Assembly: GCA_038889075.1 (NCBI GenBank)
Contig: JAWAHS010000013.1
Location: 21,261-39,530 of the forward strand
From: Ignisphaera sp.
GTDB taxonomy: Archaea > Thermoproteota > Thermoprotei_A > Sulfolobales > Ignisphaeraceae
Direction of reading: 5' to 3'
Length of the DNA: 18,270 nucleotides
The notes below the pieces were generated by a model. It was given only the letters and a program-made list of their open reading frames with translations, searched no databases and was not told where the DNA came from. A program made the translations under genes and the position numbers. Shown piece by piece: positions 3,384 to 6,873 of the stretch. The first letter of the stretch is position 1. Each line of letters opens with the position of its first letter.

Positions 3384-3767
3384 ATGTGCTTCATATCCGT
3401 ATTACTGCTTAGAAAGATGGTTGATCTAGATACGATTGTAGGTATTCTAAAGAGCCTTAGCTATACCGTTGAGATTAGGGAGTCTGGTGGTAGGAGTATT
3501 ATCGAGGCTAGAAGGGGTAGAGCCAGAATGTGGAGTACGCTCGATAGAGATATTCTTAAGATTGAAACGGAGGACTATGGTTTGGACTGTCTACGGGATC
3601 TAGATGAGATATACAGGGCTTTGTATGAGGAGGATCTGAAACCAGAGGTTGTAGAGGTTATCAGCCCGTACATCTATGTATATGAAAAGAGGAGAAGAAG
3701 TGCTAAGAAGCTATTTGAGAAAGTTGGAATAGAGGTTGAGGAGCTCTACGGCGGATACTGTGGCTAA
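3384..3767 (+). CDS. Hypothetical protein, 127 aa, ending GGYCG
   Basis: Clean ORF with TATA box and RBS, and Glu/Arg/Ile-rich thermophile composition. Confidence 0.78.
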   Translation: MCFISVLLLRKMVDLDTIVGILKSLSYTVEIRESGGRSIIEARRGRARMWSTLDRDILKIETEDYGLDCLRDLDEIYRALYEEDLKPEVVEVISPYIYVYEKRRRSAKKLFEKVGIEVEELYGGYCG

Positions 3768-4148
3768 TCACTGTATACACCTACCGAATGCTCAATTCTG
3801 TAACATAGTATAGTATTTAATTAGCCGTGTAGCATTATAGAGCTGCAGCATATAGTCTATCCATACTCTATCTAAAAGCACGTAGCCTACATAGTATGTA
3901 TCTCTGAAATGCTATTCCTCAATAGAGTAGCTTTGCTACCATCTATGCACATCTTTCAGCTAAATAGTGCAGAACATTGTAATGCATATCATCTTTCATA
4001 ATCTGCAAAATTTGTGTTCTTTCATAGATAGCTATGGCTGTCCAAAGATTTGGTACACCTTGGATTCGCCGTAGATACTCTATTTAGATTTCCATAAATA
4101 TTTATTAGAGTTCTGTATGCAGTATATCACGGATCCGACCACTTCTAT

Positions 4149-4820
4149 ATGGTGTGTATTTTGAATCTAAAGTTGAATAAGATAGTAGCAATTGTTGTGA
4201 AAGCTATAGATAACCAGGTTGGCAATTGTTTGCGATACAATCTACATTGTCTAGATCCACCATGTATAACCTCTGGACAGCTTGATAGCTATGGATTGAA
4301 GAACTACTCAGCTAAGGCAAGCTTTTGGAGAGCCGTAGACTCCGTAGCCTCTAGATATAATGGCGTCGTAATTTTTAGGGGGAGGTTTGGTGTATTTAAG
4401 CTCCTCCTCATCCATAACATTGAGGAGGTGTATAGAATAGAAAATACTACGGTATACGTTGATCCACTCGATTGCGAATACCTCAACTGTACCGCTATAC
4501 CAAAAACACATAGCCTTAGAATATATATAGAGGGTTCCTATAGCAATAGAGTTATCTTTAGAATGAATATAGTTACGCTACTTAAACTTGCTATAACTGA
4601 GAATCCATACTTTAAGGACTGTCTAGAGAGGTTTGCTGAAAAGCCATTTAGTGAGGAGAATATTCTCCATATTGCCAGCTGTAGCCTAGGTGTACTTTCA
4701 AAACACCGTAGCATATACGATATTCTATTCAACAGATATCCAAGAAACATTGCTGAAGCGCTGAGGCACATACCCATTCTCAGAAGCATTGTAAAAACCT
4801 CTGAAGAGAAAACAATCTAA
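4149..4820 (+). CDS. Hypothetical Cys-containing protein, ~223 aa (start uncertain)
   Basis: Long ORF with typical codon usage. The overlapping minus-strand ORFs are shadows. No recognised family. Confidence 0.75.
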   Translation: MVCILNLKLNKIVAIVVKAIDNQVGNCLRYNLHCLDPPCITSGQLDSYGLKNYSAKASFWRAVDSVASRYNGVVIFRGRFGVFKLLLIHNIEEVYRIENTTVYVDPLDCEYLNCTAIPKTHSLRIYIEGSYSNRVIFRMNIVTLLKLAITENPYFKDCLERFAEKPFSEENILHIASCSLGVLSKHRSIYDILFNRYPRNIAEALRHIPILRSIVKTSEEKTI

Positions 4821-4854
4821 ACAATACTATGATAAGAATTGCACTGACTGTCTA

Positions 4855-5134
4855 TAGGTTGTTTTGTTTTTGGTTTTTCTGGTTATTTGGGTTACCTCTA
4901 TGGATTCCGGGGATCGACCTAGAAGTATATAAATGATCAGGTGTTTGGATAGTTAGGAGCCGTTGAGCTGGTGAGTTGTTGGCGAGGGACGAGGCTCTGT
5001 GAACTGCTCTTCGCCGATGGTTCTGGGGAGCACAGCGACTCCCTGGAGCCGTAGGCGGGGAGAAAGGGGATAAACAGGTGGGATGAACCGTGTCCAGAAA
5101 TATCAAAACAGCCAAAAACAACTAAAACAACCTA
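4855..5134. mobile_element. Candidate MITE-like non-autonomous element with terminal inverted repeats
   Basis: Perfect 11-bp IR TAGGTTGTTTT (4855-4865) / AAAACAACCTA (5124-5134), extended imperfectly inward (GTTTTTGG and TTTCTGG versus CCAAAAAC and CCAGAAA). It can also be read as a 9-bp IR with a TA duplication. It sits between convergent genes and carries no transposase. Confidence 0.5.
4956..5095 (+). ncRNA. Candidate structured non-coding RNA inside the IR element
   Basis: GC-rich island ~25-30 nt downstream of AGAAG-TATATAAA (4921-4933). Stems 4981-4988/5008-5015 (extendable to 4973-4988/5008-5023) and 5017-5030/5039-5052 pair fully only with G.U wobbles, which favours the + strand. Confidence 0.5.
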
Positions 5135-5241
5135 GTTAATTGGCACGGGCAACCACTACTATTAGCAGACCATATATGTAGCTATACACCTCAGTAAATC
5201 TAGGGAGATTTCTTCCAGAAAAGAACATCTGGAGAAGTCGA

Positions 5242-6873
5242 CTATCTGCTGCTGTGCTTGAAGTAGTAGAGTAGAGTATTAACAGCTTTCATCAATTTTA
5301 ATACAGCTGTGGCTAGAGGTTTTACAATACTGTTTACTACAGGTATTCCTGTAAATACATCGATGAAGAATTCTATATCCTGTTCTCTAATTGCTTTAAA
5401 TACCGTTGAGAGAATAATGTATGCAGATATGTACATGGCTCCTCCAATTACTATTCTTAGTAGTGTTATCGGTTTCGGTAGTGGTATAGATAGTGGTAAA
5501 AGTGCTGCCGGTAGTGCTGCTAGCGAAGCTATGTAGATTGGTATAGTCCTCCAAATGTTGATGTAGCTTCCGAGGCTTTTAATAAGTGCTATGTTGTAGA
5601 GGATAGTTGATGCTATAGCTACCACTATATTTGATGTAAGGAAGCCCCATAGTCTGTAACCCATCGCTACGGTCAGTATATACGATGTTGGTATGAGGAT
5701 TGCTGTAGAGGTTAGCATTATATACATGTTGAGCTTTGTCTTACCAAGGGCATTGAATAGCTGGGGGATTGTTGCAGAGCCTAGTCCAGCTAGGAGGAAG
5801 GGTGCAAAGATTAGGGGGAGATATGCTGAGGCAAACCTGTATTCAGCTCCATAGAGTACATAGATAATCTCCTGTGAGTAGACTGTGGAGAGCAGTGTTA
5901 GAGGTACTACTACAGCTGCAACATACCTATTACTTCTAGCTAGAGCTGTAGATAGCTTTTCACCACCCCTACTAGAACTCATGTTTGTAAACATTGGTAG
6001 AAGGGATACTGTAATTGGATTCAATATAACGAGGACGAGAGTCTGAAGATTTAAAAGAGCTCTATATCCACCTATCTCAGCATTTGACAACGTGTATGCT
6101 AGTAGAATATTCTGGTACAGTGCTGTGATAGAATTGACTAGAGATGCTGTATAGAGTGGCAAGCTGTAGAGCACGAGCTCTCTAGCTATATAGAATCCTC
6201 CAATAGCTACACCACTGCTACCAGTATAGGTTACACGTTTCGTGATTGAGGCTAGGAATAGTAGGCCTATCGATACAGAGAGTGTGAGCCCAGCTAGGTA
6301 GCCAGCTATGGCTCCCGGTACCTGCAATCCTACGGCAAGTAGCGCTATGGCTATAGCTGTTCTAGAGATGCTGTAGGCAACTTTTATAGCAGAGCTTCTC
6401 CAAACCTCCTCAAATCCTATGAATATGGATAGAATGGAGGTGTAGAGGCTCTCAAGGATAATGGTAATCGATGCAAACATTACATAGCGATCCAGCTCAG
6501 GTCTTCCTATCAATAGTGTTGCTAAAGGTCTAGCGTAGAAGAAGCATATAGATGATCCGATAACCCCTATCAAACCCTTTAGGATAAGCGATGTTCTAAC
6601 AGCCCCTATAGCCATACCAAATTTTCTCTCAACTAGATAGAGTTTAGTGAATCTAGTAGTAGCCGTGTCTAGACCTAGATTTATGAAGGAGTAGAGGGTT
6701 AGAGGAACCACGAAGGTCAAGCTGTATATGCCATAGCCTTCGGATCCGAGAAGCCTGGCAATGGCTATAGCCCCTACAGCGAGAACAGCATTATAGATGA
6801 AATCTCCTACAGATAGTATAAAGGCATTTCTAGCAGCGCTGCTCAGCACCTCCATATCGTCACTATCCACCAC
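5242..6873 (-). CDS. Oligosaccharide/polysaccharide flippase (Wzx/RfbX-like, MOP superfamily)
   Basis: 543 aa with roughly 12-14 hydrophobic segments. It has the N-terminal 'IARLLGSEGYGIYSL...NLGLDTATTRF' pattern and the second-half 'LSNAEIGGY...PITVSLLPMFT' pattern typical of polysaccharide-biosynthesis flippases. Confidence 0.88.
   Translation of the reverse strand: MVDSDDMEVLSSAARNAFILSVGDFIYNAVLAVGAIAIARLLGSEGYGIYSLTFVVPLTLYSFINLGLDTATTRFTKLYLVERKFGMAIGAVRTSLILKGLIGVIGSSICFFYARPLATLLIGRPELDRYVMFASITIILESLYTSILSIFIGFEEVWRSSAIKVAYSISRTAIAIALLAVGLQVPGAIAGYLAGLTLSVSIGLLFLASITKRVTYTGSSGVAIGGFYIARELVLYSLPLYTASLVNSITALYQNILLAYTLSNAEIGGYRALLNLQTLVLVILNPITVSLLPMFTNMSSSRGGEKLSTALARSNRYVAAVVVPLTLLSTVYSQEIIYVLYGAEYRFASAYLPLIFAPFLLAGLGSATIPQLFNALGKTKLNMYIMLTSTAILIPTSYILTVAMGYRLWGFLTSNIVVAIASTILYNIALIKSLGSYINIWRTIPIYIASLAALPAALLPLSIPLPKPITLLRIVIGGAMYISAYIILSTVFKAIREQDIEFFIDVFTGIPVVNSIVKPLATAVLKLMKAVNTLLYYFKHSSR

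Follow-up and report, generated by a model that had tools for sequence, protein, structure and literature searches.

A short protein-less element of an Ignisphaera genome: a probable TnpB-family transposon derivative with a self-promoted guide RNA gene

Features of the locus

The window is the whole stretch of DNA that was analysed, 18,270 nt from an Ignisphaera sp. genome (contig JAWAHS010000013.1). Between two convergent genes it holds a short segment with an inverted repeat (IR), a predicted promoter and a structured RNA, and with neither tnpB nor serine-recombinase tnpA inside it. The features, in window coordinates, are as follows.

4149-4820, convergent with the downstream gene: upstream flanking gene, a 223-aa ORF with no Pfam match
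4846-4905, + strand: left end (LE); terminus GACTGTCT (4846-4853), then a G/T-rich arm, which repeats part of the right end in inverted orientation
4855-4865, no strand: left IR arm, TAGGTTGTTTT, 11 nt; compared with shuffles; repeat of at least 11 nt in 6 of 26 copies
4921-4933, + strand: predicted archaeal promoter, BRE-like AGAAG and TATA box TATATAAA (4926-4933); predicted start at about 4956
4956-5156, + strand: structured RNA of about 200 nt, omega-RNA-like; consensus fold, 215 bits with model R1
4965-4997, + strand: P1, 5' hairpin of the consensus fold
5004-5067, + strand: P2, long hairpin of the consensus fold
5078-5081 with 5153-5156, + strand: terminal helix GUGG/CCAC of the consensus fold
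5088-5096 with 5140-5148, + strand: inner stem of the consensus fold, enclosing the A/C-rich loop
5097-5139, + strand: A/C-rich loop of the 3' module, the region of the right IR arm; length and sequence vary among copies
5124-5134: right IR arm, AAAACAACCTA, 11 nt, inside the A/C-rich loop
5140-5156, + strand: right end (RE) terminus TTGGCACGGGCAACCAC, also found on tnpB-bearing elements
5157-5176, + strand: putative guide segment, flanking DNA past the scaffold, assigned by analogy with TnpB omega RNAs
5242-6873, convergent with the upstream gene and ending at 5242: downstream flanking gene, of polysaccharide-biosynthesis or flippase type

Below, G-numbers denote genomes in an order-level sample of 151, with G000 as the source genome, and L-numbers denote the loci examined. 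R1 is a covariance model built from six copies of the element. Metagenome contigs of four hot-spring runs were compared with the window over 4300-5700.

An earlier reading of the letters alone (the sequence-only reading) had described an IR-bounded cassette with its own promoter and a structured RNA. Its sequence observations proved accurate. The 11-nt arms at 4855-4865 and 5124-5134 are 100% complementary with a spacing of 258 nt, and their imperfect extensions (left G/T-rich, right A/C-rich) reach 25 nt at 76%. The AGAAG and TATA element is present at 4921-4933 as described. The GC-rich block has a GC content of 0.59-0.60 across 4950-5099 against 0.31-0.44 in the flanks, and the stem 5017-5030/5039-5052, which also appears in the computed fold, has 14 pairs, of which 4 are G.U. 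The + strand folds at -63.1 kcal/mol (z = -3.14, 1 of 200 shuffles), and the - strand no better than its shuffles (z = -0.40, 66 of 200).

The 11-nt IR by itself is only moderately unusual. A perfect IR of at least 11 nt at the same spacing arose in 17 of 1000 dinucleotide shuffles of 4700-5300, and the extended arms scored 30 against a null of 19.8 ± 3.8, a score equalled in 16 of 1000 shuffles. We accept the IR as real because it is conserved among copies, not because of the shuffle statistics. In 6 of 26 aligned copies, the left-end region and the 3' part of the RNA form a perfect IR of 11-17 nt, with the conserved core GTTTT(T)GGTTTTTCTGG; these six are the closest relatives of the window copy. 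As judged from the aligned copies, the IR is restricted to a subfamily, and it is subterminal, since the cassette ends at 4846 and 5156, beyond the arms.

Three other interpretations of the segment were rejected. A coding gene on the - strand would be an 89-aa ORF without a Pfam match, and 5 copies fail to preserve its frame and length. A replication origin was ruled out because an AT-rich core and an orc gene are absent, and a permuted or circular RNA processed via the IR because the promoter comes after the left arm.

Copies, ends and abundance

The source genome (1.95 Mb in 25 contigs) carries four copies including that of the window. A DNA search found two of them on contig 17, one with 84% identity over query 1-264 and the other with 77% over 99-269, and R1 found a fourth, truncated copy on contig 1. 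The three source-genome copies of 77-84% mutual identity have kept the promoter, all helices and the GC-rich composition. Across the order, R1 matched 28 of the 151 genomes, with a maximum of 11 matches in one genome (G152); within the genus, 7 of the 15 genomes in that sample had matches (G000 and 6 of the other 14). The copies are dispersed and their flanks differ. Searches of phage and plasmid collections gave no match. Short, non-coding and present several times with common ends and unlike flanks, the element has the properties by which a MITE or PATE is recognised. The sequence-only reading had looked ahead to copies and to longer relatives encoding TnpB or a transposase; both were found, the relatives with either a serine TnpA and TnpB or a TnpB-like protein linked to a ribbon-helix-helix (RHH) gene.

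The ends could be placed exactly. Homology among copies begins with GAC(T/C)GTCT at 4846 and stops at ...GGCACGGGCAACCAC, 5156. Eight metagenome contigs from three runs diverge into unrelated sequence just 5' of 4846, and four contigs from two runs diverge past 5156 or 5158. The earlier boundaries of 4855 and 5134, with the IR as the terminus, must therefore be moved outwards to 4846 and 5156-5158 on the evidence of copy homology and contig flanks. The tips read GAC...CAC, with AC possible as a shared crossover dinucleotide. Read from the sequence, no target duplication flanks the window element, and no TAM-like conserved motif was visible beside the left end in the aligned copies or at the LEs of full IS607-type elements. 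Past CCAC the 3' sequence is unlike in every copy.

In the four hot-spring runs, the summed contig depth over 4817-5192 was 20-200x the flank depth; in run X6, it reached 5492 over the element against 24.9-27.3 in the flanks. Ten metagenome contigs start matching at 4956.

Some copies depart from the common form. L012 (G003:C2) and L020 (G010:C14) have the promoter, P1 and the 5' half of P2, followed by the same unrelated AT-rich sequence, a form that is either a shared truncation or a recombinant of the element; the G010 example lies within 6 kb of a full copy and a solo left end. The copy C17b (L003/L024, G000:C17:~4900-5050) lies about 100 nt from an apparent intron-containing tRNA gene, identified by eye, on the opposite strand.

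RNA scaffold and promoter

In an alignment of 26 mutually related copies fitted to the model, 32 of the 51 pairs showed compensatory change and 85.4% of cells were paired. Shuffled controls gave 17.4 ± 2.4 such pairs, with 0 of 500 reaching 32, and slid controls gave 8-14. Covariation among aligned copies, which the sequence-only reading had named as a check on the RNA, is thus present, although protein-coding master elements may have passed on some of this signal.

The terminal helix takes in the final 4 nt (5153-5156) and so closes at the RE tip, as in TnpB omega RNAs, whose scaffold ends there. A scaffold that finishes at the RE boundary would therefore draw its guide from flanking DNA, as TnpB omega/reRNAs do; passages of two reports on TnpB omega RNAs place the guide after the RE boundary (PMC10055086; 10.1101/2023.03.06.531077). 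In sister RNA classes the whole terminal helix is swapped, for example from GUGG/CCAC to CCGU/ACGG.

Six of 12 strong copies have a TATA-like motif 28-31 nt 5' of their GGAGCC start; in several more it stands at an equivalent offset. The conservation of a TATA box about 28 nt upstream of the RNA supports the earlier proposal of an ncRNA gene with its own promoter.

Between the terminal helix and the inner stem, a conserved GAUGAA stands opposite (C/G)UGA, with GCAA in the window type (window 5078-5096 with 5140-5156; also L061, L060/L121 and L110). From its sequence, this motif has a possible kink-turn layout of the box C/D type and may be an L7Ae site. Sulfolobus ncRNAs that associate with L7Ae and are complementary to transposase mRNA are mentioned in the discussion section of one report (PMC3325985).

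No Rfam family matched the window at its gathering score, and the four matches at E<=10 (three sub-threshold and one sequence-only lncRNA) were not credible. ARAGORN found no tRNA, and the covariance models for SRP RNA, RNase P RNA, and C/D and H/ACA sRNAs gave no match, in agreement with the sequence-only reading, which had seen no tRNA, SRP, RNase P or C/D features. That reading had made novelty depend on Rfam, and here the outcome is divided. The window copy has no match to RF02814 Sso133 (Sulfolobus sRNA133) at the gathering score or at E<=10 and reaches the threshold of no other family, whereas distant relatives match Sso133, so the family is not wholly new to Rfam. Sso133, a model of 73 nt and one hairpin with a gathering score of 44 bits, gave five matches of 52-97.5 bits in 4 of 16 scanned loci: L110 (97.5 bits), L120, L112 (twice) and L117. 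All lie within R1 hits on the same strand, over the equivalent of the P2 hairpin and including the ...CCCGUAG.C.G... motif. We found no annotation of Sso133 as a transposon guide RNA. At L117 (G105:C1, locus 3434-3969), a TnpB-like locus, a CRISPR array (Rfam CRISPR-DR25, at least 9 repeats) lies about 500 nt downstream of the Sso133-type RNA.

IS607-type relatives

The RE terminus of the window element also stands directly after full-length tnpB genes in G102 (L066/L079), G094 (L071/L080) and G039 (L067), and after the C1 tnpB of the source genome (C1:339154-339168). In L079 and L080, a serine recombinase tnpA with a MerR-type HTH lies upstream of tnpB, which is the IS607 arrangement, and the LE begins with GACTGT as in the window element. 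L067 is cut by a contig end, with its upstream region outside view.

The tnpB-linked RNAs have a 3' module in common with the window scaffold and score merely 35-37 bits with R1; the window scaffold is therefore a distinct class. The P2 region reads ...CELLFADG..., compared with ...ACLNLFSRLNDG... at the 3' coding end of tnpB, and on this comparison P2 appears to be a recognisable, shortened remnant of that coding end. A mini-element in G008 (L069) consists of LE, the 3' tail of tnpB and RE.

Parts of a published account of the IS607 family describe ends without terminal IRs, in which several short internal motifs are bound by TnpA, and give GG termini with a GG target for most members and no target duplication (PMC6188088). 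TnpA motifs internal to the ends would fit the subterminal IR of the window element.

A TnpB-like protein linked to RHH genes

G027 has an operon of a small RHH gene and, after it, a TnpB-like gene, P0001 (361 aa); 157 nt upstream of the operon, in divergent orientation, stands a window-type RNA (177.8 bits). P0001 had no match in local Pfam or among PDB sequences, and its BLASTP comparison with an IS607 TnpB was not significant. It matched NCBIfam TIGR01766 (TnpB-related; 46.9 against a cut-off of 32), with partial matches to the guided_TnpB and N-terminal-domain models. D210, E270, D335 and H337 are invariant in 19 homologues, the last a His at the usual position of the RuvC-III Asp (LDKHTASAY), and the Cys4 motif is absent. 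Given this invariant D, E, D/H set, the protein does not look inactivated. P0001-like proteins were found in 44 of the 151 genomes, often in several copies and also as fragments with stop codons, and 463 database relatives at E<=1e-10 are named TnpB-related, IS605 OrfB or hypothetical.

Of 21 P0001-like loci searched with R1 unfiltered, 15 had a hit 5' of the gene start and on the other strand (10 at E<=0.01 and 5 at E 0.05-0.6); L105, L113, L114, L115, L116 and L119 had no R1 hit. In addition, an element of G011 with a window-type left arm and RE holds an antisense remnant of the P0001 gene (68% identity over residues 271-352, with one TGA). Because of the G027 neighbour, these upstream hits and the G011 remnant, the best reading of the sequences is that the window cassette is the same element minus its protein genes. 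Deletion of the protein genes from an element with a divergent RNA would also account for the cassette's own promoter.

An RHH/MazE-associated TnpB clade, RIIIr-4, is described in the literature as lacking the zinc finger and having His for the RuvC-III Asp; the relevant passages suggest a guide RNA in a long 3' UTR and take the clade as non-mobile and possibly a toxin-antitoxin pair (PMC10691335).

Partner genes and history of the sites

With the queries used, no intact transposase and no Y1 TnpA were found in the source genome. Both of its serine-recombinase (IS607 tnpA) genes are broken: the first (C1) is 5'-truncated and interrupted, and the second has its C-terminal end cut by a nested element that carries the genome's sole P0001 homologue (33% identity), which has its own, different RNA. 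At the first site (L078, G000:C1:~340400-341300), the tnpA that precedes the C1 tnpB has lost its N-terminal part and is split by an insert of about 250 nt. This insert reads as the 3' end of the genome's other tnpB type (C9:17019, C1:444846) in reverse complement, a guide-RNA mini-element within a transposase gene. At the second (L082, G000:C5:38279-41709), the P0001-type gene and a divergent RNA lie between the C-terminally truncated IS607 tnpA and its tnpB, a case of nested TnpB-family elements.

G152, with its 11 copies, has an intact serine recombinase; a P0001-like protein is absent at E<=1e-10, and its best TnpB is 25% identical. G010 has none of the three: no P0001-like protein (E<=1e-10), no close IS607 TnpB and no serine recombinase. 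As neither genome has a P0001-like protein or a close IS607 TnpB, many copies occur where no partner is apparent.

No excision joint across 4846-5157 was found in the four metagenome runs, which gave only internal skips typical of diverged copies, and no contig in them joined both flanks across the element. No empty site was found among relatives for either the window copy or C17a. Between the genes that flank the window element lie 12.5 kb in G012 and about 23 kb in G009; since these genes are not neighbours in these relatives, the element lies at a rearrangement junction that offers no empty-site comparison. The site orthologous to C17a holds a decayed remnant in G009 and unrelated filler in G012, and the remnant indicates that the C17a insertion is old.

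The putative guide at 5157-5172 matches G000:C2:86485-86500 at 15 of 16 nt, 14 of them consecutive. We set this guide-target match, obtained for one of three source-genome guides, aside as too weak, with about 0.05-0.15 such chance matches expected per guide by our own estimate. On contig 2, the matched position lies where an ABC-ATPase gene encodes its Walker-B motif. The full IS607-type element L080 (G094) interrupts an ABC-ATPase gene close to the Walker-B motif.

Discussion

We consider it probable that 4846-5156 derives from a TnpB-family transposon and has IS607-type ends, that it is non-autonomous and without protein genes, and that it keeps a self-promoted guide gene of the omega/reRNA kind; the same degree of confidence covers its retained parts, namely LE, RE, the archaeal promoter and a + strand guide-RNA gene of about 200 nt. 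The dispersed copies, the conserved TATA box, the covariation and the relatives bearing tnpA and tnpB together uphold the core of the sequence-only reading, a mobile, self-promoted ncRNA gene without protein cargo. The contig depth, the helix closed at the RE, the RE terminus in common with tnpB elements, the apparent coding remnant in P2, the G027 neighbour and the upstream R1 hits, the G011 remnant and the IS605 precedent also count in favour of our identification. Against it count the failure to find an empty site or excision joint in relatives or metagenome contigs, a source genome in which the queries used found no intact transposase, the 33% identity and different RNA of that genome's sole P0001 homologue, the copies in G152 and G010 that have no apparent partner, the low R1 scores of the tnpB-linked RNAs (35-37 bits), tips other than GG, and a left end with no visible TAM-like motif.

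We infer transcription, nuclease binding, use of the guide in trans and present-day mobility. Transcription would run from about 4956 through the scaffold into the flanking DNA and yield a scaffold with a 3' guide. The scaffold would be bound by a TnpB-type RuvC nuclease made elsewhere, for which the RHH-linked, zinc-finger-less TnpB relative is the candidate, or otherwise an IS607 TnpB. Such a nuclease would cut DNA that matches the guide, that is, the emptied donor site, and retention of the element would be favoured. Retention by donor-site cutting has been demonstrated with IS605 TnpB. Movement would depend on a serine-recombinase TnpA supplied in trans, for which the inverted G/T-rich and A/C-rich arms are probable subterminal binding motifs. 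The T-runs of the arms, on outward-facing strands, may stop read-through from the convergent neighbour genes.

The identification may be right and the cassette nevertheless an inert relic at this locus, its structure kept through descent from functional masters. The broken state of both source-genome IS607 tnpA genes with no Y1 TnpA found, the absence or strong divergence of a cognate nuclease, the decayed remnant of the C17a site in G009 with the old insertion it implies, and the truncated fourth source-genome copy would all suit a relic. We think it unlikely all the same, as the three copies of 77-84% identity keep promoter, helices and GC-rich composition, and present-day hot-spring communities contain many variants at high depth, which speaks for continuing spread somewhere. 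A cellular role is much harder to sustain. A domesticated host sRNA with vestigial ends, for example a regulatory or antisense RNA bound by L7Ae or the guide of a nuclease-dead regulator, would be in keeping with the copies in G027 and G093 that have lost the G/T-rich left arm and kept promoter and RNA, with distant relatives that correspond to Sso133, with the K-turn-like motif beside the terminal helix and with the precedent of exapted, transcription-regulating TnpB systems described in parts of a preprint (10.1101/2023.11.30.569447). However, the distribution is patchy (28 of 151 genomes, 7 of 15 in the genus), copy number varies and reaches high values, the flanks do not agree among copies, relatives lack synteny around the window copy, and the associated protein keeps its D, E, D/H set; a host function is accordingly very improbable.

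Almost no weight falls on coincidence, in which the arms would be T-rich terminators of the convergent genes and the GC-rich block an unrelated, single-copy host RNA. An 11-nt IR did occur in 17 of 1000 shuffles, T-runs face outwards on both strands, and the neighbouring genes end close by, at 4820 and 5242; yet the arms accompany the RNA to other loci and genomes with different neighbours, and the whole is a multi-copy unit with sharp common ends.

Within the preferred reading, a transposon derivative with a guide gene, a more specific proposal can be made, towards which we are nearly neutral and lean slightly to doubt. The window RNA could belong to the missing guide family of archaeal RIIIr-4, a family whose genes would lie not in the 3' UTR of the nuclease but divergently upstream at the RE of a mobile element, with their own promoter, and which would include Sso133 and spread as a guide-only parasite. 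As a self-contained transcription unit, the guide gene could on this proposal have broken free as such a parasite. If true, a guide-only parasite would exist at high copy in hot-spring communities, even where a cognate nuclease is not detectable.

The TnpB nucleases, from which Cas12 descends, rank with the commonest genes of archaea. To our knowledge, nearly all of their known guide RNAs overlap the 3' end of tnpB. The element supplies a scaffold, supported by covariation and exact at both ends, for a probable heat-stable guide RNA of archaea with its own promoter. It suggests a location for the guide of the zinc-finger-less TnpB clade linked to RHH genes, for which the literature has a guess in the 3' UTR, and it places the orphan Rfam family Sso133 in a likely biological setting. 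It would also mean that a lone guide gene can persist and multiply as a mini-element, which bears on the separability of guide and nuclease on the way to CRISPR.

Comparison with known systems

The Sulfolobus MITEs SM1-SM4 are reportedly deletion derivatives of DDE-type ISs, with terminal IRs and target duplications, and we know of no structured RNA gene in them. The window element resembles them as a small archaeal non-autonomous element that would be mobilised in trans. With Sso133 it shares the P2-equivalent hairpin through its distant relatives, and differs in that Sso133 is a single 73-nt hairpin to which the window RNA itself has no match.

An omega/reRNA normally adjoins, and usually overlaps, the 3' end of tnpB. 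The window RNA, in contrast, is not beside a tnpB; relatives with the same RE follow tnpB, and the closest protein-linked relative is divergent. Compared with the IS607 family (IS607, IS1535, ISC1926; Chen et al. 2018), the full-length relatives agree in having a MerR-HTH serine recombinase and tnpB, and the element may agree in showing no obvious target-site duplication and in placing short motifs and inverted similarity inside the ends and not at the tips; it differs in its termini, GAC...CAC and not GG, and in that the window copy is protein-less. The likeness to RIIIr-4 (Altae-Tran et al. 2023) lies in a P0001-like protein without a C4 zinc finger, in D335/H337 and in the RHH gene that precedes P0001 in G027. 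Here, however, the structured RNA is divergently upstream, the loci have conserved ends, many copies are fragmentary, and the window copy is the RNA alone.

For IS605, passages of one report describe PATEs whose omega RNAs are used in trans (PMC10055086). Like the PATE-like IS200/IS605 elements of Geobacillus stearothermophilus (Meers et al. 2023), the window element is short and protein-less, has LE and RE with a probable guide scaffold at the RE, and presumably takes TnpB and TnpA from trans. Unlike them, it has an archaeal host, ends of the IS607 (serine recombinase) and not the Y1/IS605 type, an internal TATA promoter, a subterminal IR and another RNA family. The kind of element is thus known from omega-RNA PATEs; what is new is that the host is an archaeon, that the ends are of IS607 type, that the promoter is internal and that such RNAs stand divergently beside an RHH-linked TnpB.
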